Of a DNA stretch of 64,000 bases, positions 1 through 16,949 are shown piece by piece. Under the pieces are notes generated by a model. The model had not been told where the DNA came from. It did no database searches and worked only from the letters and a program-made list of their open reading frames with translations. A program made the translations under genes and the position numbers. Each line of letters starts with the position of its first letter. The first letter of the stretch is position 1. The stretch is from Patescibacteria group bacterium (GTDB lineage Bacteria; Patescibacteriota; Microgenomatia; UBA1406; HO2-37-13b): contig DATDXN010000016.1 of assembly GCA_035289305.1 (NCBI GenBank), positions 18,315 to 82,314 on the forward strand, given 5' to 3'.

Positions 1-162
1 ACAACATCATTTTCTTTTAGGGATAATTTTTCGTTGTGCGCTTTATACCGTTTGTGCTTTTTTATCGTTTTTTTATAGAGTGGATGCTGAAATACCCTCT
101 CCACTTCAACCACCACTGTTTTTTGCCCTTTTGTTGAAACTACTTTTCCCTGTAGTACCTTG
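1..162 (-). CDS. rpsQ: 30S ribosomal protein S17, partial (3' end runs off the window start)
   Basis: Reverse-strand translation from the ATG at 160-162 gives MAKVLQGKVVSTKGQKTVVVEVERVFQHPLYKKTIKKHK..., an S17-like N-terminus. It lies directly downstream of rpmC, as in the S10 operon. Confidence 0.8.
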
Positions 163-182
163 GCCATAGTATTTTTTGAAAA

Positions 183-380
183 TCACTCACTTTTCTCGCC
201 TAAAATGGTTAAAATGCGAGCCAGTCTTTTCCTTTTTTTCATGATGCTATTGGTGTCTTTTTGTGGATTTATTCCCCTCTCAATCGTGAGCTTTGCAATC
301 TCGGTGCGCAAAGCTATACTCTCTGCTTTTAGCTCTTCTACCGATTTACTTTTAAGGTCTTGCATGTCTTTTTTAGTCAT
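183..380 (-). CDS. rpmC: 50S ribosomal protein L29
   Basis: The 65-aa ORF MTKKDMQDLKSKSVEELKAESIALRTEIAKL... has the L29 helical pattern. It sits between rplP and rpsQ. Confidence 0.85.
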   Translation of the reverse strand: MTKKDMQDLKSKSVEELKAESIALRTEIAKLTIERGINPQKDTNSIMKKRKRLARILTILGEKSE

Positions 381-386
381 ACGATT

Positions 387-794
387 TTATTGTTTTTTGA
401 TAATTTTCGTCTTGACGGGCAACTTGCTTGCAACACTTTTGAGCGCGACACGTGCCTCCACTTCAGGTACACCATCAATTTCAAAAAGAACTCGTCCGGG
501 AGAAACAACACTCACAAAATATGCTACCTCTCCTTTTCCAGCTCCCATGGTTACCTCGGGTGGTTTTTTGGTATATGGCTTATCGGGAAAAATACGCATC
601 CAAAATTTTCCTGTCTTTCGTGTCGTTCGCGCCAATATAAGTCGAGCTGCCTCAATTTGTCGATCCTTGATAAAACCTGCTTCGATTGATTTGAGACCAA
701 TGCCCCCAAATTCTAAAGCATTTCCTTTTATAGCGATTTTGCGCCATACACCCCGAAATGCCTTTCTGTATTTTTGTCTTTTTGGTGCCAACAT
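387..794 (-). CDS. rplP: 50S ribosomal protein L16
   Basis: The 135-aa ORF MLAPKRQKYRKAFRG...RIFPDKPYTKKP...GKGEVAYFV matches the L16 consensus. Confidence 0.95.
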   Translation of the reverse strand: MLAPKRQKYRKAFRGVWRKIAIKGNALEFGGIGLKSIEAGFIKDRQIEAARLILARTTRKTGKFWMRIFPDKPYTKKPPEVTMGAGKGEVAYFVSVVSPGRVLFEIDGVPEVEARVALKSVASKLPVKTKIIKKQ

Positions 795-809
795 TGTATA
801 AATTAAAAA

Positions 810-1460
810 TTAAAAATTTTTACGTGCGATCCAAACTTTCACGCCGATATACCCTGATCGTGTCAGAGCTGGAAAACGCGCAAAATCAATGTCTTCACGC
901 ACAGTTGACATTGGGACAGTTCCTTCATAGTACTTTTCGCGGCGTGAAATGGCAGCGCCCGCAATCCTTCCTCCCAGTTGAATTTTCACACCCTTTGCTC
1001 CAGCTTCCATCACCCTGTCCATCGAATGATGAATAATTATTCTATGGGGTAATTGTCTCACGAGCTTTCCGGCAATATCGTGGGCTACGAATTGAGCGTT
1101 GAGATAGGGTTTTTTCACTGGTTCAATCTTTATATCGATTTTTGTTTTCTGTTTCTTGACTGTTTTTCTCCCTATAACATCCTGCGCGAAACGCTTAATC
1201 TCCTCAAGCCCTTTCCCGCCTCGCCCGATAATCATACCGGGTTTGACTGCATGGATAATAAGTCCGATTTTATTGATTGCGCGTTCTATCTCAACTTGAA
1301 CAACATCAGCAAAGCTGAATCTTTTCGTTATCCCTGTTCGTATGGCAATATCATTCAACAGAGCCTCCTTATAGACTTTTTTGTTCCCAAAAATCCATCG
1401 AGAGTCCCATGTTGTTAATATTCCCAGTCGCAATCCTTTTGGATGTACTTTTTGTCCCAT
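810..1460 (-). CDS. rpsC: 30S ribosomal protein S3
   Basis: The 216-aa ORF starts MGQKVHPKGLRLGI... and has a KH-domain pattern. It is in the canonical position. Confidence 0.95.
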   Translation of the reverse strand: MGQKVHPKGLRLGILTTWDSRWIFGNKKVYKEALLNDIAIRTGITKRFSFADVVQVEIERAINKIGLIIHAVKPGMIIGRGGKGLEEIKRFAQDVIGRKTVKKQKTKIDIKIEPVKKPYLNAQFVAHDIAGKLVRQLPHRIIIHHSMDRVMEAGAKGVKIQLGGRIAGAAISRREKYYEGTVPMSTVREDIDFARFPALTRSGYIGVKVWIARKNF

Positions 1461-1477
1461 AGGTTCTATTTAAAAAA

Positions 1478-1843
1478 TTATTTTTTCTCCTTTTTTTCTG
1501 ACCCTTCGTCCTTTGGCACTAAAACAATGTTAATATGCGCCCCTTTCCGCTTGAAGGGTTTTGCAGTACCCCTCCCGCCCATTCTGTATCTTTTCAGCCT
1601 CGGCCCTTCATCAATAGAAAAGGTCTTAAATTGTACCATGCGCGCATCCTTTTTTAAAGTGCTTGCGGCATTGGAAAAAGCTGATTTCAGTGCTTTATAC
1701 AAAATTCTTGCACCGCGTTTTGGGCTGTATAAAAGCATATCAAGCGCTGCTTCCGGCTCCATCTTTTTTATTTCTACAATAAGAAAACGCAGTTTCTTGG
1801 GTGAAATGCGAACGCCGGTAATGTGTGTATGTGATTCACTCAT
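1478..1843 (-). CDS. rplV: 50S ribosomal protein L22
   Basis: The 121-aa ORF ...ISPKKLRFLIVEIKKM..ALDML...IDEGPRLKRYRMGGRG aligns to L22. Confidence 0.9.
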   Translation of the reverse strand: MSESHTHITGVRISPKKLRFLIVEIKKMEPEAALDMLLYSPKRGARILYKALKSAFSNAASTLKKDARMVQFKTFSIDEGPRLKRYRMGGRGTAKPFKRKGAHINIVLVPKDEGSEKKEKK

Positions 1844-1850
1844 ACTATTT

Positions 1851-2594
1851 TTATTTTCTCCTCTTTACGATAAACTTATTACTCCATTTGTTTCTTTTTC
1901 TTGTTCTTGTGCCTCGCGCGCTCTTCCCCCATGGGGTTTTTGGCGTCATGCCTTCTCCTGTCTTTCCCTCTCCTCCTCCATGAGGATGCGAGCGTGGATT
2001 TTGTGCGACACCCCGCACGGTAGGCCGTATACCCATAAGACGGGCGCGACCAGCTTTGCCGATTTTCTCGAGTTTGTGGCCGATGTTGCTTATCTGACCA
2101 ATGGTCACCCAACAATCAAGCATAATTTTTCTCACTTCTTTTGACGGAAGCCTGATATCCGCATATGTGTCATCTTTTGCAATAACCACTGCGTAATTTC
2201 CAGCACTTTTCGCTATCTGTCCACCCTTTGAAGGATACAGTTCTATATTGTGAATAAATGTACCCAAGGGAATATTTTTCAAAACGGTCGCATTGCCGGG
2301 TCGAATTGGTGCATTTTCACTTGATATGATTGCATCGCCCTTTTTCACACCTTCTGGATGCAGTATATATCGTCGTTCACCATCCTTATATGCAACAAGC
2401 GCAATATATGCAGTTCTGTTGGGATCGTATTCGATACCAATGATTTTTCCTTCATTATCTCGCTTATCGCGTTTGAAATCCATCATGCGATAATATCGTT
2501 TTTGTCTGCCTCCTTGATGACGAACAGAAACATGACCTTTTTGGTCTCTTCCTGAATGTTTCTTCAAAATGGTGATGAGTCTTTTTTCAGGCAT
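1851..2594 (-). CDS. rplB: 50S ribosomal protein L2
   Basis: Contains RHQGGRQKRYYRMMDFKR...YDPNRTAYIALV...NPRSHPHGGGEGK. The ORF track extends to 2717, but the internal Met at 2594 gives a normal L2 N-terminus and abuts the rplW stop. Confidence 0.93.
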   Translation of the reverse strand: MPEKRLITILKKHSGRDQKGHVSVRHQGGRQKRYYRMMDFKRDKRDNEGKIIGIEYDPNRTAYIALVAYKDGERRYILHPEGVKKGDAIISSENAPIRPGNATVLKNIPLGTFIHNIELYPSKGGQIAKSAGNYAVVIAKDDTYADIRLPSKEVRKIMLDCWVTIGQISNIGHKLEKIGKAGRARLMGIRPTVRGVAQNPRSHPHGGGEGKTGEGMTPKTPWGKSARGTRTRKRNKWSNKFIVKRRK

Positions 2595-2599
2595 ATTTT

Positions 2600-2887
2600 T
2601 CACGTCTGCGGGAAAAGATTGATCTTTCCTTTTGAAACTTTTATATACGCCATTTTTCGATCGGGTTGTTTTTTGGAGACCATTTTCCTTCCCTTTTTTC
2701 GCACTTTTCCCTCGCAAATAGCAGTGCGAACGCCCGAAACCGTGACGGAAAAAAGAAGCTCTACAGCTTCTTTGATCTGTCTTTTTTGCGCATGAGGATG
2801 AACCTCAAATGTATAGACTGATTCTTTTACTTTTTGCATCGCTCTTTCAGTGATGATTGGTCTGTAAATAACTTCGTTAATTTTCAT
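2600..2887 (-). CDS. rplW: 50S ribosomal protein L23
   Basis: The ORF reads [18 protein letters not shown]...TFEVHPHAQKRQIKEAVE. The start is taken at the internal Met; the ORF track extends to 2902. Confidence 0.85.
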   Translation of the reverse strand: MKINEVIYRPIITERAMQKVKESVYTFEVHPHAQKRQIKEAVELLFSVTVSGVRTAICEGKVRKKGRKMVSKKQPDRKMAYIKVSKGKINLFPQT

Positions 2888-3599
2888 GGTGTCTTTTTTC
2901 AAGAACTGCTAAACTTTCTTTGGCGAGGAGTATTTTTCGAGCTTTAAGCATCGCGTATGGGTTTACCGTTTGAGCATCAGCAAATTCCACATATGAAACG
3001 TTTCGTCCTCCCTGTCTCATATGCTCAAATCCCTTCTCTGGCAAAACAACGAGCACTCTTTTTTTCTCACCTGACGCAAAATGATCAAGTACTTTGCACG
3101 TCTCTTTTGTGCGCGGTTTGATTTCTGAAAATCCCGAAACAACCTGAATATCACCGGCACTGAATTTTTGGGAAAGTACTGCAAAAAAAACACGTCTCTT
3201 TTGTTTTTTGTTCATGGTGAGTGAGAAATCGCGAGGTTTGGGTCCATGTGCTACTCCTCCGCCGACGAAAATCGGTGCTTTGATAGGACCGTGTCTGGCT
3301 CGGCCAGTACCCTTTTGGCGGTAAATTTTCCGTGTCGACCCCGCTACTTCTCCCCGCGTTTTAGTCGAGATAGTGCCTTGTCGCTGACAAGCTAAATAGA
3401 CACGTATGTATTGTGCAATAAGTTTGTCTGACCCCTTTTCTTCAAATATTTTTTTCGGCAATGCTACACGCTCGACCTCCTGTCCCACCGTATTATATAT
3501 CGGTATACCAGCTTCTTCTTTTTTTACCGGCCCATTCTTTTTTTCACCTACAGAACTTTTTGTTGTGACTTCTTTTGGTGTTTTTTTTGCGGGTGACAT
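2877..3599 (-). CDS. rplD: 50S ribosomal protein L4
   Basis: The 240-aa ORF ...[32 protein letters not shown]... carries the L4 signature. Confidence 0.9.
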
Positions 3600-3602
3600 A
3601 TA

Positions 3603-4286
3603 TTAAAAATAGGATTCATGTGAAATAACCGTAATAACTCCCCCCTGTGCTCCAGGGACAAGTCCTGCTACTACTAACTCATCATCTTTTGCCTCAACTA
3701 CCCGCAGACCCTTCACAGTGACTGTATCTCCTCCCATTCTACCTGCCATTCGTTTCCCCTTGTACACTCGTCCAGGGGTCGTGGTTTGTCCGATTGACCC
3801 GGGTGCGCGCTCACGGTCAGACTGTCCATGTGTCCGTGGGCCTCCTTTGAAACGATGGCGCCTTACCACTCCCTGAAACCCTTTACCTTTTGATACACCG
3901 GTCACAACGATCGGATCATTTTTTGCAAAAAGAAGAGAAGGAGTAATTTCTGATCCGGCAAATAATTCGTGTTGACCGACTTTAATTCCCTGTTTTCCTT
4001 CTTTCTCAATAAATGAGATTCCATTTTTCTTATCAAGCCGTATCTCGCGAAAAAAACGAAGCGGGTCTTTGATGCCCGCTTTTTTCAAAATTCCGGCGCG
4101 TGATTTTTGAATTTTCTTGGTGCCTCCCCATCCAAGAAGGATAGATGTGTATCCATCACGTTGTGGATACTTCACATCAATCACCCTACAGGGACGGGTG
4201 ATAATATGAGTGACTACAATCCGTTTTCCTTTTTCATCAAATGCTGCCTCCGATTTCGATTTTTTACCTACGATAAAACCTTTCAT
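3603..4286 (-). CDS. rplC: 50S ribosomal protein L3
   Basis: The ORF reads MKGFIVGKK...FKGGPRTHGQSDRERAPGSIG. The ATG at 4284-4286 is preferred over the upstream TTG at 4293-4295 given in the ORF track. Confidence 0.9.
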   Translation of the reverse strand: MKGFIVGKKSKSEAAFDEKGKRIVVTHIITRPCRVIDVKYPQRDGYTSILLGWGGTKKIQKSRAGILKKAGIKDPLRFFREIRLDKKNGISFIEKEGKQGIKVGQHELFAGSEITPSLLFAKNDPIVVTGVSKGKGFQGVVRRHRFKGGPRTHGQSDRERAPGSIGQTTTPGRVYKGKRMAGRMGGDTVTVKGLRVVEAKDDELVVAGLVPGAQGGVITVISHESYF

Positions 4287-4293
4287 ACAGAAC

Positions 4294-4318
4294 AAAAAAA
4301 AGCCCCAGATTGGGGCTT
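4294..4318 (-). terminator. Intrinsic-terminator-like hairpin plus U8 in the rplC leader; a possible attenuator
   Basis: Plus strand 4300-4318 is AAGCCCCA-GAT-TGGGGCTT, an 8-bp GC-rich stem, preceded by A8 at 4294-4301. On the minus-strand RNA this reads as a hairpin followed by U8, ending 7 nt before the rplC ATG. Confidence 0.5.
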
Positions 4319-4390
4319 GTCGCTTCCTTCCAATCTGAAAAACTGTGTCAAAAAAACTGCGTGATAAAAATATCTTTTATCATTAATACA

Positions 4391-4419
4391 ATTATATAGT
4401 ATCTTCACGCATGCGTCAA
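4391..4419 (-). promoter_or_regulatory. Sigma-70-like promoter on the minus strand, reading toward rplC
   Basis: The reverse complement gives TTGACG (4419-4414), a 17-nt spacer and TATAAT (4396-4391). The predicted start is near 4384, leaving about 98 nt of leader that contains the hairpin above. Confidence 0.45.
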
Positions 4420-4468
4420 TGAGTAGTTTGACATTGTGTTTTTGGGGCGGTTGCGATACACTATCAAA

Positions 4469-7030
4469 ATGGATACGGGGGAGATTGAGAAACAAGGGCT
4501 TTCGACAAAACACGCCCAAGAACTTCTCAAAATACACGGGTTAAACGAGATACGAGAGAAAAGGGATTTTACTCTTTTTACAGCATTTTTCAGTCAATTT
4601 GACAATTTTTTGATCATTCTTCTTATAGGAGCAGGAATTGTATCATTTCTTTTTGGCGAAAAAATAGACAGTTTTTTTATTTTTTTCATCGTTATTCTTA
4701 ATGCTTTCTTTGGCGTCTATCAAGAATTTAAAGCAGAAAAAGCTATCCAAGCGCTCAAAGTCCTCACGATAAGCACCACCCGTGTCATACGAGACGGGAG
4801 GGAACAAAACATCGATAACAAATACCTTGTGCCCGGAGATATCATATATGTTGAAGAAGGCGCCAAAATCCCCGCAGATTGCCATGTGGTCAAAGCAAGG
4901 CATTTTGAGGTCAATGAATCCTCATTCACCGGAGAATCATTCCCTGTGAGAAAAAACGAAAACAAAAACAATAATCTGCTATATCTCGGAACGGTTGTTG
5001 CAAAAGGAAGAGCATACGCACGAGTAACAAAAATAGGCATGCATACGCGTTTTGGAGAAATTGCGCAAACACTCAAAACTATCAAGGAGAAAAAAACACC
5101 GCTTCAGCGCAAACTCGAAGTCTTTTCAAAACAAGTTGGAATCATTGGTATATGCGCGTCAATCGTGGTATTTTTCCTCTCCTTCATACAAACAAAGACG
5201 TTGTTTGAGAGTTTTCTCTTTGCCGTCAGCCTGGCTGTGGCAGCAGTACCCGAGGGGCTTCCTGCAGTCATGACCATCACCCTTGCGATAGGAGTTGAGC
5301 GCATGAGCAAAAAAAAGGCCATCATCAGGAAATTAAACGCCATAGAAACACTTGGCGCTGTGACGCTTGTTGCAACAGATAAGACTGGAACTCTTACGAC
5401 CAATCAGATGAGTGTGAGAAAAATATGGATTGATAAAAATGTATATGAAGCAAAAACTCCCTCATCCATCTCTCCAGATCATCCATTCAATTTATTTCTT
5501 CTCAATTCAATCCTCTGCTCAACTGCCTCAATTGTCATGAAAGTAAACCATGGAGCATTCGACGTCGTGGGCGACACAACCGAGGGAGCACTGCTTCTTT
5601 TTGCCCATAAAATGAATTACTCACCTGCTGGAATTCGAAAAGAGTGGACAATCCTCGATGAGATGTCTTTTAACCCAGTGACGAAGCGAATGAGCGTTGC
5701 TGTTTCTTCACTCAAAAATCCTCATGAGATGTATGTCTTTAGCAAAGGAGCTCCCGAATCAATTATAGGTATCTGTGACAAAATCATCTGGCGAGGACAA
5801 GAAATAGAATTTGATACAGAGAAAAAAACACTTATTGAAAAGGAATTTCAGTCATTTGCAAAAAAAGGTCTTCGCACGATTGCATTCTCGTATAAAAAGA
5901 AAGATCGCAACCTCCAGTCAAAACAGGTATTTTTGGGATTTGCAGGCATAGCAGATCCTGTGCGAGATGAGGCAAGAGAAGCTGTGGAGAGGGCAAAAAA
6001 AGCAGGAATACGTGTCGTGATGATTACCGGAGACAGCACGCTTACGGCAGAGGCAATCGGAATTGAAGCAGGAATTATCACGCAGGGAGACGATATTCTC
6101 ACCGGTTCCCAAATAGATGCTTCCTCGGACCGGGAGCTTCGTCCTATTCTCGATAAAGTCAAAATATATGCCCGCACGACGCCGGAGCACAAATATCGTC
6201 TGGTCAAGCTTTTGCAGGAAAACAATGTCGTTGCAGTAACTGGAGATGGCGTCAACGATGCCCTCGCGCTTAAACAAGCAGACGTGGGAGTTGCAATGGG
6301 AAAAACAGGAACAGATGTGGCAAAAGAAGCAGCTGATATGATTATCACCGATGACAACTTCGCGACACTCATCAATGCAATTGAGGAAGGACGCAATATC
6401 TTCAATAACATTAAAAATGCCATCAAGTATCTTCTCACGTCAAATACCGCTGAAGTCATCGCAGTTCTTATCACCGTCAGCCTCAAACTACCTATCGTTA
6501 TTACTGCCTTACAAATACTCTATATCAATCTCATAACAGATGGGTTACCTGCACTTTCCCTCGCGTTTTCACCAAAAGATAAAGACATCATGCGCCAAAA
6601 ACCGAGGAAAGCAGAGGCGCTCCTTCAGAAAAAAGACTTTAAATACATCCTCGTAATAGGACTTTTTGGAGGGATACTGACAATTATTTCATTCTTTGTG
6701 GGTATGGGGTTTGATGGCGTGGGATTTGCCCGCACTATGGCTTTTACTACCCTGACACTTATTCAGCCATTTATTCTTCTTGATTTGTGGCTTTCACATC
6801 GCATCATCATTCGCCATTTTAATTTGCTTAAACACCCTGTTTTTTTAAGCTCATTACTTCTTCCGTTTCTCATTCAGCCATTTCTTATATATCAACCGCT
6901 CTTGCAAGATATTTTCAAAACACAGTCTCTTAATCCCTTGTATATTGTGATTGCGTTTTTACTAACGACACTTATTATTCTTCCCATTGAAATAAAAAAG
7001 ATTCTGATGAGGAAAACAGTTACATCTTAA
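4469..7030 (+). CDS. P-type cation-transporting ATPase (P2-type, Ca2+/Mg2+-ATPase-like)
   Basis: Carries the DKTGTLT phosphorylation motif, MITGD, TGDGVNDALALKQADVGVAMG and multiple TM helices. The start is taken at the ATG at 4469; the ORF track begins at a GTG at 4436. Confidence 0.92.
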   Translation: MDTGEIEKQGLSTKHAQELLKIHGLNEIREKRDFTLFTAFFSQFDNFLIILLIGAGIVSFLFGEKIDSFFIFFIVILNAFFGVYQEFKAEKAIQALKVLTISTTRVIRDGREQNIDNKYLVPGDIIYVEEGAKIPADCHVVKARHFEVNESSFTGESFPVRKNENKNNNLLYLGTVVAKGRAYARVTKIGMHTRFGEIAQTLKTIKEKKTPLQRKLEVFSKQVGIIGICASIVVFFLSFIQTKTLFESFLFAVSLAVAAVPEGLPAVMTITLAIGVERMSKKKAIIRKLNAIETLGAVTLVATDKTGTLTTNQMSVRKIWIDKNVYEAKTPSSISPDHPFNLFLLNSILCSTASIVMKVNHGAFDVVGDTTEGALLLFAHKMNYSPAGIRKEWTILDEMSFNPVTKRMSVAVSSLKNPHEMYVFSKGAPESIIGICDKIIWRGQEIEFDTEKKTLIEKEFQSFAKKGLRTIAFSYKKKDRNLQSKQVFLGFAGIADPVRDEAREAVERAKKAGIRVVMITGDSTLTAEAIGIEAGIITQGDDILTGSQIDASSDRELRPILDKVKIYARTTPEHKYRLVKLLQENNVVAVTGDGVNDALALKQADVGVAMGKTGTDVAKEAADMIITDDNFATLINAIEEGRNIFNNIKNAIKYLLTSNTAEVIAVLITVSLKLPIVITALQILYINLITDGLPALSLAFSPKDKDIMRQKPRKAEALLQKKDFKYILVIGLFGGILTIISFFVGMGFDGVGFARTMAFTTLTLIQPFILLDLWLSHRIIIRHFNLLKHPVFLSSLLLPFLIQPFLIYQPLLQDIFKTQSLNPLYIVIAFLLTTLIILPIEIKKILMRKTVTS

Positions 7031-7328
7031 TTTCCACATCAATACCTGCTGGAAGATCAAGATGCATGAGAGAATCAATCGTTTGGTTAGTGGGATTGAT
7101 AATATCAAGAAGCCTCTTGTGGATTTTGAGACCAAAGTATTCTCGACTATCTTTGTCAATAAAGGTTGATTTATTGACGACATATGCCTCTTTTTTTGTC
7201 GGAAGGGGGATGGGCCCCACGATAGAAGCACCAGTCTTTGTGGCAGTATCGACCAATTTTTGACACGTCTCGTCAATGAGACGATGATCAAATGACTTCA
7301 ATTTTATCCGTATCCTTCCTTTTGGCAT
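7020..7328 (-). CDS. rpsJ: 30S ribosomal protein S10
   Basis: The 102-aa ORF MPKGRIRIKLKSFDHRLIDETCQKLVDTATKTGASIVGPIPLPTKK is a classic S10. Confidence 0.95.
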   Translation of the reverse strand: MPKGRIRIKLKSFDHRLIDETCQKLVDTATKTGASIVGPIPLPTKKEAYVVNKSTFIDKDSREYFGLKIHKRLLDIINPTNQTIDSLMHLDLPAGIDVEIKM

Positions 7329-7366
7329 ATGTAAAAGAGCAAAAAACAGTTAAATCAGTTGTGTAA

Positions 7367-8551
7367 CTATTTAGTGACTTTCGTGACGACTCCCGCACCG
7401 ACCGTATGACCTCCCTCACGGATGGCAAATTTGACACCTTCCTCAAGAGCCACCGGATAAATTAACTTACCCGTGATTTTGATATTATCTCCTGGCATGA
7501 CCATCTCGACTCCCGAAGGAAGCGTTGCCTCACCAGTCACATCAGTAGTCCTTATATAAAATTGTGGTCTGTAGCCAGTGAAAAAGGGCGTGTGACGTCC
7601 ACCTTCTTCTTTGGTCAATACATAAATTTCTGCCTCAAATTCTGTATGAGGTGTGACCGACCCTGGTTTGGCAATGACTTGACCTCGCTCCACCTGCGTT
7701 TTTTCAATTCCTCGAAGTAGAAGGCCGACGTTGTCTCCTGCACGTGCCTCATCAAGGCTTTTCTTGAACATTTCAACACCGGTGATGACGGTCTTTTTGG
7801 TCTCTTTAAGGCCTACGATCTCAATTTCCTCATTGACTTTGAGTATTCCTCGCTCCACTCTTCCCGTCACCACTGTTCCTCTTCCTTGAATGGTGAAAAT
7901 GTCCTCAATAGGCATCAAGAAGGGTTTTTCAGTGTCTCGAATTGGATCGGGGACGTATTCATCAACCGCCTTCATCAGATCTTCGATTGACTTTACCGCA
8001 TCTGCATCTCCTTCAATTGCCTTAAGAGCAGAACCGCGGATTACCGGAATTTTATCACCGGGGAAATTATACTTTTTGAGAAGATCACGAACTTCCATCT
8101 CAACTAGATCAAGAATCTCTTTATCAGATACCATGTCTACCTTGTTCAGGAAAACAACAATCGCAGGAACGTTTACCTGACCGGCAAGGAGGATGTGTTC
8201 TCTTGTTTGGGGCATGGGCCCGTCAGGCGCTGAAACGACCAGTATCGCGCCATCCATTTGTGCAGCACCGGTAATCATATTCTTGATATAATCAGCATGT
8301 CCTGGAGCGTCAATATGGGCATAGTGCCGCTTCTCGGTCTCGTATTCAGAGTGGTGAAGATTGATCGTCACTCCACGAGCTTTTTCCTCGGGCGCTTTAT
8401 CAATTTCTTCGTATTTGAGGACTTGTGCCATTCCTTTTTTTGCCAACACATGATGAATTGCCGACGTAAGCGTCGTCTTGCCATGATCCACATGACCAAT
8501 GGTGCCAATGTTTAAATGAGGCTTGGTTCGCTGAAAAACTCCTTGTGCCAT
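7367..8551 (-). CDS. tuf: Elongation factor Tu
   Basis: The 394-aa ORF contains [22 protein letters not shown] and NKVD. Confidence 0.97.
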
Positions 8552-8576
8552 ATGTTATTTAAAGTAAAGTCAATAA

Positions 8577-8596
8577 ATCCCGATTTATATCGGGAT
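8577..8596. promoter_or_regulatory. Perfect 8-bp inverted repeat with a 4-nt spacer, in the divergent tuf / membrane-protein intergenic region
   Basis: ATCCCGAT-TTAT-ATCGGGAT read directly from the sequence. It could be an operator or a 5'-UTR hairpin. Confidence 0.35.
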
Positions 8597-8673
8597 AAAA
8601 ATTTTTAATGATATAGACTTACAAATGTAATATTCTAGTACAAACAAATAAAAAAAGCAAATGCAAAAAGCGC

Positions 8674-8702
8674 TTGCAAAGTTATATGCGTTGTTCTACT
8701 AT
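8674..8702 (+). promoter_or_regulatory. Candidate sigma-70-like promoter for the 8713 membrane-protein gene
   Basis: TTGCAA (8674-8679), a 17-nt spacer, then TACTAT (8697-8702). The ATG at 8713 leaves a near-leaderless transcript. Confidence 0.3.
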
Positions 8703-8712
8703 AAAATTAGGT

Positions 8713-9633
8713 ATGAAAAAAATCAAGACTTTTTTTCATGTATTGACCAATTCTGCGATTCCTCATAGAGAGTATTACAAAAAGATCCAAAGGACGCCTT
8801 TTCGGTTTTCTCTCACCTATTTTTTCTTTCTCGTTTTTATCACTCAATTTATCGTCATGACGATTGTTTTTACAAGAATATGGCTTTTTGAGGGCAGTTT
8901 TGGGAGCTTCAAAACAAACGTCACGCAAATGTTTGATAGCTTCCCTCAAGATCTCGTGGTCACGATCAAAAATAGACGACTGTTTACCAACTATAATTAT
9001 CCTTTTATTGCGTGGTTTAACTACCACAATATTCCATTTCCCATAGTTGCTGTAGATGAATATGCCAACGCAGGAAAAATCCAGGAGTATGATTCATTTG
9101 TGCTTCTTCATGCTGAAGGAATCACCACGCAAACTCAAAAAGACCTTAATACCTATCCGTTTGAAAAAAATACAACGTATGTCATCAATAAAGAGAAAGT
9201 TAATACGCTCAAAAACTTCTTTCTCTACTGGTTTTCTCTCGTTTTTCCCTTAGCTGTTTTGCTCTTTTTCATTCTCACGATTTCAATCGTACCCTTTGCT
9301 TATTTTATTGGCACATTGATCTATCTCGTTGTGTTGGCCTTAGTTGTCTCTATCGCGGCAAAATTGAGCTATCAACATATTCATTACAAAAAAGTTCTGC
9401 AGATTAGTTTTCACGCAATCACGCTCCCGTTTATTCTCAATAATATCACATTTCTCATCATGCCCCATCGCCCCATTTTCAAATTATGGCCGGGAACTCA
9501 ACTTGCAGTGCAACTTAGATTTTCGTGGCTTTTTTTGGTGATCTATTTCTTGTTTTTGGTGGTCGCGGTATACGAAGTGTATGGTACTTCCTCCTCTCAT
9601 ACAAAATCTCATCATGTTTCCCATCATCAATGA
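8713..9633 (+). CDS. Hypothetical polytopic membrane protein
   Basis: Several hydrophobic segments and a C-terminal His-rich tail SHHVSHHQ. The start is taken at MKKIKTFF; no family assigned. Confidence 0.5.
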   Translation: MKKIKTFFHVLTNSAIPHREYYKKIQRTPFRFSLTYFFFLVFITQFIVMTIVFTRIWLFEGSFGSFKTNVTQMFDSFPQDLVVTIKNRRLFTNYNYPFIAWFNYHNIPFPIVAVDEYANAGKIQEYDSFVLLHAEGITTQTQKDLNTYPFEKNTTYVINKEKVNTLKNFFLYWFSLVFPLAVLLFFILTISIVPFAYFIGTLIYLVVLALVVSIAAKLSYQHIHYKKVLQISFHAITLPFILNNITFLIMPHRPIFKLWPGTQLAVQLRFSWLFLVIYFLFLVVAVYEVYGTSSSHTKSHHVSHHQ

Positions 9634-10910
9634 CGAGACGTCAAAATAGCCTCCAATTCTTTCACAAATGAAATATTTTTGTATGAAAATATGTGCGAGA
9701 AACCAAAACGCTCTGCATCGCGCATGATTTTTGCCTGACGTATGACTTTGCGTACCTCTCCCAAAAGCCCCACCTCACCGACAAACACCGATTTTTCAGG
9801 AGCGGGAATATTTTTGAATGAGGAAATAACCGAGGCAATAACTCCCAAATCTGCGGCAGTTGATTTGATCGAAATGCCACCGACAACGTTGACATAGATA
9901 TCGTAGCGATCAAGCGGTAACCCCATGTTTTTGCGAACGACTGCCAGAAGCAACAGTAATTTATTGTAGTCTATGCCCGATGATACTCGACGAGGGATGG
10001 TCAGGAAACTTTCAACCACCAACGTCTGCACTTCAAAAAAAAGAGGGCGATTGCCTTCTGCCACTCCCACGAGTACTTTGCCCGGAGCTCTTTTTGTCTC
10101 CTCATCCAAAAACATGGTAGATCCTGAAGCCTCTACAAATCCTTTTTCCTTCATCTCAAAAATTCCGACCTCATCTGTTGAACCAAATCGGTTTTTATGT
10201 GCTCGCAAAATCCGAAATTGCGACTGACGGTCTCCTTCAAAATACAAAACAACATCTACAACATGCTCAAGTAGTTTGGGTCCGGCAATACCTCCTTCTT
10301 TTGTCACGTGACCGATCATAATGACTGAAATATTGTTTTTTTTGGCAAAGTCAATGACTTGTGCGGCAATTTCTTTAATCTGCGCAGGAGCACCGGGAGA
10401 AGCTTCAATTTTTTTGGAATACACCGTTTGGATAGAATCAATGACGATGATGTCATAGATATTTTTTTTCTCACCCGCAGCCTCCAAAATTCCCTCAATT
10501 TGCACGTCATCGGAAAAATAGATGTGGGCAAGATCAACCCCCGTACGCTCTGCACGCTCTTTCACCTGTTCGCCAGACTCCTCACCGGAGACATAAAGAG
10601 TTTTCATTCCCGAAAAAGATGTCAAAAGAAGGGTCGATTTTCCAATGCCCGGGTCACCGCTTAAAAGGACGACAGATCCTTGAGCAAATCCACCCCCCAA
10701 AACACGGTCAAACTCGAAGAAGCGAGTTTTTTTGCGCTCACGCGTACGGCTTGTAACCTTCGAAAGAGAGATAATTGTTGCTTTTTTCGTTTCTTCCCCC
10801 ACCCCTATTTCTTTTTGTTCACGCATCATATTCCACTCTCCACAGGAGGGACATTTACCATACCACGAAGCTGAACCATATCCACACGAAGCGCAAATAA
10901 ACAATGACAT
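9627..10910 (-). CDS. radA: DNA repair protein RadA/Sms
   Basis: N-terminal C4 zinc finger (CASCGY...CPSCGEW), RecA-like Walker A GDPGIGKST, and a Lon-like C-terminal domain. Confidence 0.9.
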   Translation of the reverse strand: MSLFICASCGYGSASWYGKCPSCGEWNMMREQKEIGVGEETKKATIISLSKVTSRTRERKKTRFFEFDRVLGGGFAQGSVVLLSGDPGIGKSTLLLTSFSGMKTLYVSGEESGEQVKERAERTGVDLAHIYFSDDVQIEGILEAAGEKKNIYDIIVIDSIQTVYSKKIEASPGAPAQIKEIAAQVIDFAKKNNISVIMIGHVTKEGGIAGPKLLEHVVDVVLYFEGDRQSQFRILRAHKNRFGSTDEVGIFEMKEKGFVEASGSTMFLDEETKRAPGKVLVGVAEGNRPLFFEVQTLVVESFLTIPRRVSSGIDYNKLLLLLAVVRKNMGLPLDRYDIYVNVVGGISIKSTAADLGVIASVISSFKNIPAPEKSVFVGEVGLLGEVRKVIRQAKIMRDAERFGFSHIFSYKNISFVKELEAILTSRH

Positions 10911-10948
10911 TGCATCTATTCTAACAAAAAAAAGATTCTCTATTGACC

Positions 10949-10977
10949 TTGAAATATTGTAGAGGATGCGTTACAAT
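10949..10977 (+). promoter_or_regulatory. Sigma-70-like promoter for the 11003 gene
   Basis: TTGAAA (10949-10954), a 17-nt spacer, then TACAAT (10972-10977). It lies 26 nt upstream of the ATG. Confidence 0.4.
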
Positions 10978-11002
10978 ACACCTCCAAATTAGTTATAAAC
11001 AT

Positions 11003-12865
11003 ATGAATCGGAAAGAATTACCACCACCCACTACCCAACCGCATATCAAAATAATAAAAGAAGTGCCTGCTCTTTCTCCTATCGAGAAACGTCTCGTCCA
11101 CAGTGCGGTGAATGAAAATATAGACCAAGGAGTAGATCCAAAAGAAACCCATCAGAGAGGACAATACACCGAAGAAAGAATTCTTTTCCTGAAACTTAAT
11201 CTTCCTCCTTCATATAATTTTCAAGAAGTTCTTGAAACAATATATCCCAAATCTCTCGAGGATTCTGGTAATACTACAGCAAAAGAAAAACCCACAATAC
11301 CATGGCTTGCAGCAAAACCTTTCTCCACCGAAGATGAACAAGAAATAAAAAAATTATTGCCTCGCCTAGTGCTTGATGATCCAGTATATGAAGAAACATT
11401 GGACCTACCCGATTTTCCTCTATATGCCGTAAGCACTCTCCTCACTTCTGAAACGTATGAAAAAGCTCATGAAAAAATGGTGAAGACTATAAGAAAATAT
11501 ATACACGAAGCAATCGGGAATAGAGGGGAAATCGTCCTTACGGAAATACTTGAGGGAAATTCTCGTTTTGTAAAAGGAGCCCTCATCCAACAAGACATAC
11601 GCCATGCACTTTTTGGACAACCAACAGAGGATGGAGGATTTTATTATCGTCATCCGACGGTATTTCTCAGATGGGTTAACCAGTGTCATGATCGAAAAGC
11701 TCTGAAAGAAGTAATGGGTGTAATGGGTATAGAATCAAAAGAAAACGAAAAAATTCGTGGTCTTTTATTGCATACGTTTGCAATGCCTGCGCAAGAAGGA
11801 ATACATACACATATTCGAAATAGTCAAGATGACTCACGCATACGCCCCTCCTCACAAACAATAATGATGGCAATCGGAGAAAGCAATCTACCTGATATAT
11901 CATCTATGGAAAAAACCATACAAGAAACACTTCAAAAAAAATACTTACCTTCTCAATCATGTTGTTCTATCGAAGTAGCGCCACTTCCTGAAGCGAGTGG
12001 AAATTTCTATTATAAAATTCCAACGAGGAGTATAGAAGATACTTTCTCGATGTTGCAACAATCTGTTTCACTCATGGACTCCCTTAAAGAAAAGGGGTTG
12101 CTGCATCCGCTTACCGGAATGCCCCTTCGCACTGGCACAATGCTTGAATTTGAAAATCTAAACGATACAGAACGGAAAGTTTTGTTGCATTCATTCGCAG
12201 CACTCACTTGTGCATTATGGCTCTCTATCAGTCCTGTTGATCGACTAGAACATTTTCTTCAAGCCCAACGAAATTCCTTAATCGGCCATGATGATCATGG
12301 CAACGGAAGGTATGTCATATATAACAAGCTTCCCTTCGTAACTGATATGCTTTCTTTTGATGTGGCTCGTTTAGAGACGTTATTTACAGCGCATGTTGCG
12401 GAAACTTATAAACAAAATGGAATTGAGGACGCACGACAAACGATGAAGGAAATAATAGATGCTATCGGTGAAAACCTCATATCGCTCAATCGCTCTCCTG
12501 TAAATATAGAGTCTTTGCAAGATGTATATTCACTTTTGGGAGTAAAGTATGATGATAAATGTCATGAAACTATGGTGGGTCTTGTATCTGATCATCGACG
12601 AAAAATTGGAAACAACAGCGATCGTATACAACGTTTCTCTCGCGCATTGAAACGGGCGAAAAAAGAAAGTGCAGAAGAAAAAATACGAAAAATAGAAACT
12701 CTCCTTCATGATCTTGAAAACAGCAAGGTATACATTGACGATTATTTTCTTTTGGGGAAAGAGGGACGAAACAGGCTCGCCGGTAAGATCATAGAGATTT
12801 TGAAAGATGCGATAACTGCAACGGTAGGTAAAAAAAGAGGTGGCGTAGATTTTTCCTCTCTCTGA
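11003..12865 (+). CDS. Hypothetical protein (about 620 aa, no recognisable domains)
   Basis: Long intact ORF with a hydrophilic, charged sequence. The start is taken at MNRKELPPP; the upstream TTG in the ORF track is unlikely. Confidence 0.55.
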   Translation: MNRKELPPPTTQPHIKIIKEVPALSPIEKRLVHSAVNENIDQGVDPKETHQRGQYTEERILFLKLNLPPSYNFQEVLETIYPKSLEDSGNTTAKEKPTIPWLAAKPFSTEDEQEIKKLLPRLVLDDPVYEETLDLPDFPLYAVSTLLTSETYEKAHEKMVKTIRKYIHEAIGNRGEIVLTEILEGNSRFVKGALIQQDIRHALFGQPTEDGGFYYRHPTVFLRWVNQCHDRKALKEVMGVMGIESKENEKIRGLLLHTFAMPAQEGIHTHIRNSQDDSRIRPSSQTIMMAIGESNLPDISSMEKTIQETLQKKYLPSQSCCSIEVAPLPEASGNFYYKIPTRSIEDTFSMLQQSVSLMDSLKEKGLLHPLTGMPLRTGTMLEFENLNDTERKVLLHSFAALTCALWLSISPVDRLEHFLQAQRNSLIGHDDHGNGRYVIYNKLPFVTDMLSFDVARLETLFTAHVAETYKQNGIEDARQTMKEIIDAIGENLISLNRSPVNIESLQDVYSLLGVKYDDKCHETMVGLVSDHRRKIGNNSDRIQRFSRALKRAKKESAEEKIRKIETLLHDLENSKVYIDDYFLLGKEGRNRLAGKIIEILKDAITATVGKKRGGVDFSSL

Positions 12866-13970: not shown

Positions 13971-16949
13971 TTATTGCCATGCTTCACAATTAATTCGAAA
14001 CGGACAAAAATCACACCATGGCCCGACGTTTGCCGCAAATAACCCTTTCTGTATCTGCGAAATCGTATTTTTTACCACTGCCTTTGCTTCTTCAATGTCC
14101 TCCGGCTTTTTTTTCGTTGAGAATACATCTGCATCTTGTAGGAAGTGAAAAGTCAGCGTAATATCATCAACGGGTTTTGCGTAAAAACTTTTATCAGACA
14201 CAGCCAATGCGTAGAGACTCATCTGTAGATTTTTTTTCAAGGCAGGTAGCGTTGGTTTTTTTCCAGTTTTATAATCAATGATTTCCAGCCCTCCATCTTT
14301 TCGCGCATCAACCCTGTCTATTTTCCCACTGATAAATGTAGTTTCATCTATCTTCACGGTAAATCGTTTTTCAAGATCAAGAATTGAGAGATTATCCGTA
14401 TGATAGCGCATAAAAAAACTCTGCAACATCTTCTTTCCCTCTTTTTTCATTTTTTCCTCATGGGTCCTGGAAACATATCCCAATGGCAACCAACACATTT
14501 CATAAAACGTAAAAAGATCATCAAGCGTTACTCTGCCGACTTTTTTGAGAAACAGATAAAACTTCTGCAAAGCTCTATGAATACTGTCTCCAAAAGAGGC
14601 AGCTGCTGATGGCAAAGTAGGGATTTTTAAGACATACTGATATTTATAACGTAAGGGACATGTCTTATACGACTCAATCTGTGAATAGGAAAGCCGCGAC
14701 GGAACGGGACGAGAAAAAACAGGCTCTTTGTCTTTTTTTTCTTCATGTTTCTTAAAATCAACCCCGATTGAATCGGGATCAGCTCCAATGAGATCGGGAT
14801 CAAAAATCGAGAGCTGTGATTTTTCTTCCTTTTGCCTGTGGGTAAGTCTTTGGACAAAATCTTCACCCATTGCCTCAACGACAAATGGTGAAACTTTGCG
14901 CATCCGCCTGCCCTCGCCGTAGTTAAGACTTGACGTAAAATATACTTTGTCCCGGGCGCGCGTCACCCCCACATAAAAAAGCCTGCGCTCTTCCTCAAGA
15001 TGATAATCACCCTCTGGCAGTATTTCTTTGATAAGCTCATCGGGAATGGGGATCGGCTCTCGCCGCTCTCGTGTGGGAAACCGATCAAGCGTCAGATTGA
15101 CCAAAAAGACGACTTTAAATTCCATACCCTTTGCAGAATGTACAGTAAGAATGTTGACCGCATCGCGCTCGCTTATATCAAGTTCAGGCACGAGGGGGGA
15201 CTCTTTAAACTCCATACACATGTGGATGAAATCAACCGCCGCCTCTACCGATGCGTCTTCCTGCCTGACCTCACGTGTTTTTAAAAACTCGAAAAATCGA
15301 GAGATATTGACCACTTTTCGCTCGTCCTTCGCTGTCTTTGCTGATGCAAGATAGGATAAATATCCTGATTCTTCGAGGAAAAAGTAGAGAATCTGACCTA
15401 CTGTTTCTTTTGAAAAAAGGGAAAGCGCTCGCTCAACAATGCCATAGATTTTCTTGATTGTCTCTTTGGTCTCCTGCCGTGTGATAAAAAGCTCCCTCCG
15501 GTAGATCTCAAATTCGCTGCGTGCGTATTCTGTGTAGAAAAATGAAAGATACACGTGCATAGCCTCAAAAAGTGAGAGACTTGTCCGTTTGGCAAATGAG
15601 ATAAAACGCGCTACGTCTTTCTCATCAAGGTGGAAAATATCCATGGAGATCACACGGTAAAAACTCGCTGAATCAGAAACATCTGTCAAAAAAGTAAGAT
15701 ATGCAATAAGATCCTTGATTTCTGGTTGCTTGAAAAGCATACCCTGCCCCAAAAATTGAAAAGGAATTCCATGTCGCTCAAATGTATGAGCAAAAGGATC
15801 TGCGTGGCTATTGGCACGCATCAAAAGAGCGATATCGCGATACTTGTATCCTTTTGTGATCAATTCCTGGATTTTCTCTGCGACGTATTCGCATTCTTTG
15901 GTGATATGAGGGGCGACAAAAAGTGAAACGCTTTCACCGTTTCCCTTACCTGTCATGCTTTTGAGGTTTTTTGAAATATTGAGTCTGCTTTCCAATGTGT
16001 CGGGATTATTGTGCGTGATGACGCGGTAGGCAATATCAAGAATGTGTTGATTTGATCGGTAATTCTCAAGGAGTACCATCTGTTTTGCTTGGCCGTAATC
16101 TTTCATGAACTGAAGAATATTTGAAACGGAGGCACCTCGAAACTTATAGATGCTTTGATTATCATCTCCGATGACTGAAAGCTTCGGCTGTTCTTGAGGC
16201 GGGGCGAGGAGCTTAATCAGCTCATATTGAGCAATATTAGTGTCTTGAAACTCATCAACAAGAATATATTTAAACCGCGCCTTGTACTTCTCTTTGATAT
16301 TTTGGCGGGCGCGAAAAAGCTTCACGGTATAAAAAATAAGATCTGCAAAATCCATGATAGTATCTTTCAATTTAATATCTTGAAATACCGTATACGCATG
16401 TGCTAATTCAGTGTTTTTCTTCACATCGGGACTTTCGACTTTATGGACTTTTTCCTGTGCACGTGCCCATTTCATATAGTTTTCCGGCGCAATGTCTTCG
16501 TCTCGAAGGCGCGAAAAATGTTGGATCAATCCTTCGATAAATTTATAGGGGTTTCCTAGAGGACGGAAATAGTCGAGATTGAACAAAAACAGTTTTTTTT
16601 GAAGATAGATGATTGATTGAGCCTGCGTATAAAGCTTATATTCGGGGGAAAGACCCATATGCATCCCGTCTTCTTTCAAAACACCGTCGCAAAAAGAGTG
16701 AAATGTGGCGATATGTGTCTGAAAATATCCATAAGGAAGTATTTTATCCACTCGCTCCTCAATTTCGTTCACTGCCTTTTCCGTGAAGGTAAGCGCCAGA
16801 ATCTCATCGGGACGGGCGAGTTTGTGAGCAATGAGATATTTAATCTTTTCAACTAGTACGGTGGTTTTGCCAGTTCCTGCTCCGGCGATGATGAGAAGCG
16901 GTCCATCATTGTATACAACTGCCTGTTTCTGCGAATGAGTCAACTTCAC
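13971..16949 (-). CDS. UvrD/PcrA-like helicase fused to a RecB-family PD-(D/E)XK nuclease with a C-terminal Cys cluster (AddA/AddB-like)
   Basis: N-terminal IIAGAGTGKTTVL UvrD motif I. C-terminal GKIDRVD...IIDYKTG nuclease motifs and a CDFCPFRINC cluster. Confidence 0.85.
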   Translation of the reverse strand: MKLTHSQKQAVVYNDGPLLIIAGAGTGKTTVLVEKIKYLIAHKLARPDEILALTFTEKAVNEIEERVDKILPYGYFQTHIATFHSFCDGVLKEDGMHMGLSPEYKLYTQAQSIIYLQKKLFLFNLDYFRPLGNPYKFIEGLIQHFSRLRDEDIAPENYMKWARAQEKVHKVESPDVKKNTELAHAYTVFQDIKLKDTIMDFADLIFYTVKLFRARQNIKEKYKARFKYILVDEFQDTNIAQYELIKLLAPPQEQPKLSVIGDDNQSIYKFRGASVSNILQFMKDYGQAKQMVLLENYRSNQHILDIAYRVITHNNPDTLESRLNISKNLKSMTGKGNGESVSLFVAPHITKECEYVAEKIQELITKGYKYRDIALLMRANSHADPFAHTFERHGIPFQFLGQGMLFKQPEIKDLIAYLTFLTDVSDSASFYRVISMDIFHLDEKDVARFISFAKRTSLSLFEAMHVYLSFFYTEYARSEFEIYRRELFITRQETKETIKKIYGIVERALSLFSKETVGQILYFFLEESGYLSYLASAKTAKDERKVVNISRFFEFLKTREVRQEDASVEAAVDFIHMCMEFKESPLVPELDISERDAVNILTVHSAKGMEFKVVFLVNLTLDRFPTRERREPIPIPDELIKEILPEGDYHLEEERRLFYVGVTRARDKVYFTSSLNYGEGRRMRKVSPFVVEAMGEDFVQRLTHRQKEEKSQLSIFDPDLIGADPDSIGVDFKKHEEKKDKEPVFSRPVPSRLSYSQIESYKTCPLRYKYQYVLKIPTLPSAAASFGDSIHRALQKFYLFLKKVGRVTLDDLFTFYEMCWLPLGYVSRTHEEKMKKEGKKMLQSFFMRYHTDNLSILDLEKRFTVKIDETTFISGKIDRVDARKDGGLEIIDYKTGKKPTLPALKKNLQMSLYALAVSDKSFYAKPVDDITLTFHFLQDADVFSTKKKPEDIEEAKAVVKNTISQIQKGLFAANVGPWCDFCPFRINCEAWQ

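Follow-up and report, generated by a model that had tools for sequence, protein, structure and literature searches.

An apparently unreported, clade-wide relocation of rpsS within the S10-spc ribosomal-protein cluster of Microgenomates

The window analysed here, which is the whole 64-kb stretch of DNA from contig DATDXN010000016.1 of a Patescibacteria group bacterium, begins within a ribosomal-protein cluster that is encoded on the minus strand and continues past the left window end. Its genes and features are given below in window coordinates, in the direction of transcription of the cluster; L001 denotes a contig that extends beyond the left end and is described further on.

7367-8551, minus strand: tuf, which precedes rpsJ
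7020-7328, minus strand: rpsJ (S10), after tuf and separated from rplC
4436-7030, plus strand: P-type ATPase, type II (Ca2+-like), 864 aa, between rpsJ and rplC
4296-4419 (L001 7425-7558), minus strand: rplC leader, with a promoter-like site and a terminator-like hairpin
3603-4286, minus strand: rplC (L3), which opens the co-oriented block in this organism
2877-3599, minus strand: rplD (L4)
2600-2887, minus strand: rplW (L23)
1851-2594, minus strand: rplB (L2), 247 aa, TAA stop at 1851-1853, Pfam PF00181 and PF03947
1844-1850, minus strand: L2-L22 spacer, 7 nt, AAATAGT on the coding strand, the rpsS slot in canonical genomes
1478-1843, minus strand: rplV (L22), 121 aa, ATG at 1841-1843, Pfam PF00237, directly 3' of rplB
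810-1460, minus strand: rpsC (S3), Pfam PF07650 and PF00189
387-794, minus strand: rplP (L16)
183-380, minus strand: rpmC (L29)
1-167, minus strand: rpsQ (S17), 5' part, continuing off the left window end

The sequence-only reading had claimed that rpsS, the gene for S19, is missing between rplB and rplV, with 7 nt separating the L2 stop (1851-1853) from the L22 start (1841-1843). These coordinates are exact, and the absence is real: the Pfam matches extend over positions 1-77/77 of L2_N, 2-126/126 of L2_C and 5-103/104 of L22, so that both proteins are intact on the side of the junction and neither is truncated there, and the 7-nt spacer holds no S19 remnant. An AGGAG Shine-Dalgarno-like motif is present within the final L2 codons (AAG AGG AGA AAA), 14 nt 5' of the L22 ATG. 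At the other end of rplB, the mechanically derived ORF starts with a TTG at 2717 and has a 118-nt overlap with L23; the ATG at 2594, giving 247 aa, is likely the real start, and the TTG at 2717 probably is not. Public gene calls for L2 also differ, some giving 247 aa and others 211 aa.

The same reading held that no S19-like ORF occurs anywhere in the window, and both searches of the 64 kb agree with it. The use of tblastn with S19 of E. coli, B. subtilis and T. thermophilus gave a best E-value of 0.04, with short spurious matches only, while an unfiltered profile HMM, made from 81 Microgenomates S19 sequences and applied to all six-frame segments, reached a best E-value of 1.9 (5.8 bits), compared with 176.6 bits for the true S19 of the organism as positive control. 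The gene sits outside the window, which is why the earlier reader could not see it. Contigs L001-L003, from three independent assemblies (ENA ERZ4903055, JGI 3300002502 and Logan SRR2090153), are 100% identical to window positions 1-11843 and run on past the left edge, the window position being equal to 11844 minus the L001 position. Beyond the edge come L5, a type Z S14, S19 and S8, an order that is seen on five agreeing contigs (L001-L004 and L006), two of them (L004 and L006) identical to the window over shorter overlaps. The two genes of interest are the following.

L001 13190-13375 (about 1.35-1.53 kb beyond window position 1): rpsN (S14, type Z), 61 aa, with CxxC...CxxC
L001 13380-13664 (about 1536-1820 nt beyond window position 1), same strand as the cluster: rpsS (S19), full length, 94 aa

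The encoded S19 (MARSLKKGPYIDQKLFEKVKK...GHRLGEFAPTRSFKGHGKVTKRVLEKT) matches PF00203 over positions 1-81/81 (9.9e-36, 121.9 bits, cut-off 27) and scores 135.8 bits against TIGR01050 rpsS_bact (cut-off 89.35). A gap of 4 nt separates its gene from the preceding S14 stop, and one of 8 nt from the S8 start that follows; the gene belongs to the same co-oriented cluster and is 3.4 kb downstream of the canonical slot. Since the gene is intact and has only been repositioned, the organism should still make a normal S19. The neighbouring S14 scores 98.6 bits against NF005974 (cut-off 77), which assigns it to type Z; its gene is missed by gene finders on all public contigs, where 204 nt separating L5 from S19 are left as "intergenic".

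Compared with the canonical cluster (rpsJ-rplCDWB-rpsS-rplV-rpsC-rplP-rpmC-rpsQ / rplNXE-rpsNH-rplFR-rpsE-rpmD-rplO-secY), the locus is a variant of the S10-spc cluster and not a new kind of system. The two are alike in content, strand and the relative order of genes other than rpsS, as well as in their few-nucleotide spacers: rplC-rplD-rplW-rplB and, across the junction, rplV-rpsC-rplP-rpmC-rpsQ are collinear with the canonical S10 operon, and outside the window S17 is followed by L14, L24, L5, S14 (Z), S19, S8, L6, L18, S5, a short L15 and SecY. Unlike the canonical S10-spc-alpha cluster, however, this one carries rpsS in its spc part, where it intervenes in the canonical succession of rpsN and rpsH; rpsJ is cut off by the ATPase gene and does not stand next to rplC on the same strand; and rpmD (L30) is absent between rpsE and rplO, S5 ending at L001 15514 and the L15-like gene starting at 15521, which leaves only 6 nt and hence no room for L30. 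The gene before secY, which extends to L001 15835, encodes 104 aa with a match to rplO_bact at positions 11-66 only (42.4 bits, below the cut-off) and no Pfam match, and from its sequence the product looks like a shortened or divergent L15. Off the window as well, a 57-aa L33 gene is situated between secY and adk (L001 17161-18480), and the adk in this interval encodes 375 aa, roughly double the usual size, and its product has AAA/ADK-type Pfam matches in two sets.

The ATPase gene lies on the opposite strand to rpsJ, and the 3' ends of the two genes overlap by 11 nt. No ATPase gene was found at the S10-L3 position in related Microgenomates loci (0/80), and in six relatives that share the relocated rpsS the S10-L3 gap is only about 124-151 nt. 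Its absence from 80/80 related loci marks the insertion as recent and lineage-specific, and with it the S10 operon is broken a second time. For the same reason, the idea that the ATPase insertion accompanied the S19 move was rejected.

A survey of gene order was based on one genome per species (GTDB representatives), from which 80 loci were retrieved with this S19; the order in each, over up to about 12 kb per genome, was read from tblastn matches to 21 cluster proteins. The relocated order (L2-L22 ... L5-S14-S19-S8) is found in 38 of the 80 loci and the canonical order (L2-S19-L22 ... S14-S8) in the other 42, and within the stretch read for each genome (up to about 12 kb) no locus has two S19 genes, the state expected of a duplication intermediate. 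The CPR-named records among these loci all belong to Microgenomates (Roizmanbacteria, Woesebacteria, Shapirobacteria, Gottesmanbacteria and Levybacteria). In a distance-based neighbor-joining tree of 12 concatenated ribosomal proteins, S19 excluded, the relocated genomes and the window form one clade, with the bipartition recovered in 60/60 bootstraps; its sisters are the canonical Roizmanbacteria locus L013 and then the canonical locus L019, and the window is placed in a 60/60-supported clade holding most of the Roizmanbacteria-named loci. The mean ribosomal-protein identity within the relocated clade is 62.5%, with a minimum of 51%, and the nearest sampled relative of the window shares only 65%. 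The single clade with 60/60 support, together with the deep divergence within it, points to a single ancient relocation, kept ever since, in a large subclade of Candidatus Roizmanbacteria (Microgenomates/OP11, CPR), which are uncultured bacteria of groundwater. Many of the species-representative MAGs in the survey bear the title "uncultured Gammaproteobacteria" or "Pseudomonadales" (binchicken / SRP..._co assemblies), and the title of one is "Limisphaerales"; all of these carry Microgenomates-type ribosomal clusters (L011, L015-L018, L023, L026, L033, L034 and others); as these loci fall inside Microgenomates in the ribosomal-protein tree, the titles of the records look wrong.

The sequence 5' of rplC is a second point at which the locus differs from a canonical S10 operon. 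The leader contains the promoter-like TTGACG-17-TATAAT at 4391-4419, the best such site of the region in a consensus scan, and a terminator-like hairpin, AAGCCCCAAUCUGGGGCUU with a U-run, at 4300-4318, which ends 13 nt before the L3 ATG. In an alignment of 18 leaders from the relocated clade (alignment A1), 99.1% of the stem cells are paired and compensatory changes occur in 4 of the 6 pairs, a covariation value reached by none of 500 shuffles, and a similar hairpin closes the S10-L3 spacer in most of the Microgenomates loci examined. Further upstream, the conserved CCGGAUUGG is complementary to CCAAUCUGG, which comprises the 5' arm and loop of the hairpin; pairing between the two amounts to 93.2% versus 26-59% when the segments are slid against each other, and since both are nearly invariant they show no covariation. 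From these features, CCGGAUUGG could be a putative antiterminator of the hairpin, and the rplC leader is a candidate regulatory, attenuator-like element. The S10 leader of E. coli, which is controlled by L4, offers a parallel, in that a conserved GC stem and U-run with covariation are found in the rplC leader too. When the extended locus of 20 kb was scanned against Rfam by E-value, no ribosomal-protein leader or other relevant family was returned, and a survey of ribosomal-protein leaders records an rplC-associated leader only for Archaeoglobi. The rplC leader may merit separate study.

For the empty slot between rplB and rplV, the sequence-only reading had named relocation, loss or an assembly artefact as explanations. 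Only the first of these stands: the intact rpsS between rpsN and rpsH speaks for relocation and, by the same token, against loss, whereas identical independent assemblies and the 38 other genomes speak against an artefact. The source is a metagenome-assembled sequence, from which S19 might have been dropped at the L2/L22 junction, or which might be chimeric; however, 18 public contigs carry a gene for the identical L22 protein, and nine of the ten listed among these (L001-L009) have the same 7-nt spacer. The junction-spanning contigs come from different samples and three pipelines (ENA megahit, JGI and Logan), one of them (L008) represents a slightly different strain with 3 mismatches and the same junction, and the 38 other species-level genomes with the same order stem from unrelated studies, which leaves an assembly artefact with a negligible probability. 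A genuine loss, resulting in an S19-less ribosome as a CPR-style reduction, would be in line with the lack of some otherwise universal ribosomal proteins in CPR bacteria and with the absence of L30 here, but given a full-length rpsS above the equivalog cut-off on the same contig, 3.4 kb downstream, it is refuted. The same gene order would also be expected as the end state if a foreign rpsS had been inserted between rpsN and rpsH by horizontal transfer and the native copy deleted. Single genes of the cluster have been swapped for divergent homologues elsewhere, according to the parts of Brandis 2021 (PMC8046335) drawn on here, and the S19-only tree is poorly resolved, with most, but not all, relocated S19 clustering together and 94 aa being too short to resolve the origin. 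Against such a displacement, the relocated S19 is typical of Microgenomates: it agrees with its counterparts in canonical Roizmanbacteria sisters both in length (94 aa) and in having a GHGKVTKRVLEKT-type C-terminal tail, its mean identity to those of L012, L013 and L019 is 68-71%, its best database relatives are all Microgenomates, and there is no sign of a distant donor. We therefore regard displacement by a foreign gene as very unlikely; in one variant of it, the donor would be a very close relative and the outcome indistinguishable from an intragenomic move. Because the moved S19 resembles that of the canonical sisters, the gene most likely moved within the genome and was not captured from a foreign source, as judged from protein similarity. 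Taken as a whole, it is highly probable that rpsS moved once within the ribosomal-protein supercluster, from the rplB/rplV to the rpsN/rpsH position, in the ancestor of a Roizmanbacteria subclade, and was retained in all sampled descendants.

The relocation of rpsS would alter its rank in the polycistron, with S19 translated after S14 instead of after L2. On the basis of the 4-nt and 8-nt spacers and the lack of a convincing terminator between L3 and SecY, we infer that S19 is co-transcribed and translationally coupled in a long polycistron. A consensus scan across the cluster returned 16 terminator-like sites versus 13.0 +/- 3.8 in shuffled sequence; the promoter and terminator counts are no higher than in shuffled sequence, and the scan is informative only for the single strong site 5' of L3. 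The move may have been adaptive and not neutral, either by coupling the synthesis of S19 to that of S14, its partner in the 30S head and a member of the same assembly branch, or by freeing S19 from the rplC-leader attenuator. On the Nomura/Culver 30S assembly map, S19 is said to be a secondary and S14 a tertiary binder of the 3' domain. Retention in 38/38 clade members despite about 50% protein divergence is what an advantage would produce, yet long retention is expected for any order in an essential, tightly packed operon in which rearranging is costly, and the canonical order is equally stable in the 42 other genomes; on balance, we hold an adaptive origin to be unlikely. An equally low standing is given to the fuller proposition that the move is an undescribed, ancient, clade-defining rare genomic change that was fixed as functionally advantageous, whether through coupling to S14 or through changed exposure to the rplC leader.

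Coming back to a single move of rpsS within the supercluster, the net change would be that two neighbouring blocks, S19 and L22...S14, traded places, and can be envisaged by two routes: (i) S19...S14 was duplicated in tandem, after which the first S19 and the second L22...S14 block were lost, and (ii) a copy of rpsS alone was inserted where S14 and S8 meet, and the original was then deleted. By analogy with the changes in this operon cluster that have been reconstructed as duplication plus deletion in Gammaproteobacteria and Bacilli, in the parts of Brandis 2021 (PMC8046335) considered, duplication and then loss of redundant copies is most likely to have been the route. The search for scars or microhomology at the relocation junctions returned the generic form "TAA n(1-10) ATG" throughout, in both arrangements, and as all junctions share this form they are uninformative on the mechanism. 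Across the relocated clade, the L2-L22 spacer measures 1-35 nt and contains no S19 remnant, and spacers of a few nucleotides are found in both states.

A separate observation concerns the start of S8. In the canonical locus L019, and apparently also in L013, which has the same computed overlap, the S8 start overlaps the S14 end by 8 nt (tcATGGTAA), and the N-terminus of S8 in L019 is MVNDPIAD. Relocated genomes have this S14 end too, but with S19 behind it, and their S8 start differs.

The rplB-rpsS-rplV-rpsC string is among the most stable gene orders known, so that any break in it is rare. To our knowledge, the L2-S19-L22 adjacency is otherwise maintained throughout Bacteria, Archaea and organelles. 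Peculiarities of CPR ribosomes are reportedly of a different kind, Brown et al. in 2015 being said to have described them as without L30 and, in some phyla, without L9 or L1. The present locus has in common with these its Microgenomates-type lineage and the absence of L30; on the other hand, those are gene losses, whereas here the position of a gene has changed and the content is kept. Closer parallels are found in the cases described in the parts of PMC8046335 used here, in which one gene is likewise gone from its cluster slot with a copy elsewhere, duplication and deletion are proposed, and the neighbours and spacers are intact. Those cases, however, concern rpmJ, rpsN, rplJL and secY, with the surviving copy outside the cluster, while in our case rpsS stays inside, 3.4 kb off, in a CPR lineage; in the main text of Brandis 2021 (PMC8046335), rpsS has 0 occurrences. 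In a paper on Roizmanbacteria genomics, S19 figures solely among 16 marker proteins. Within the literature searched, we came across no account of rpsS having relocated in CPR, Microgenomates or Roizmanbacteria, and none of the papers listed there that name Microgenomates, Patescibacteria, OP11 or Roizmanbacteria also mentions "rpsS". The S19 relocation is a real, clade-wide gene-order variant that has apparently gone unreported.

For the organism itself, the biological consequence appears modest, with little visible so far. As a clean, ancient and subclade-wide break, the relocation provides a simple, alignment-independent marker to define this Roizmanbacteria subclade and to check bins, and pipelines that collect the 16 syntenic ribosomal proteins, or use their order to assess completeness or contamination, need to allow for an S19 located between S14 and S8 in such genomes and not score it as missing. 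More broadly, the locus indicates that even the S10-spc operon can reshuffle internally without loss of content.
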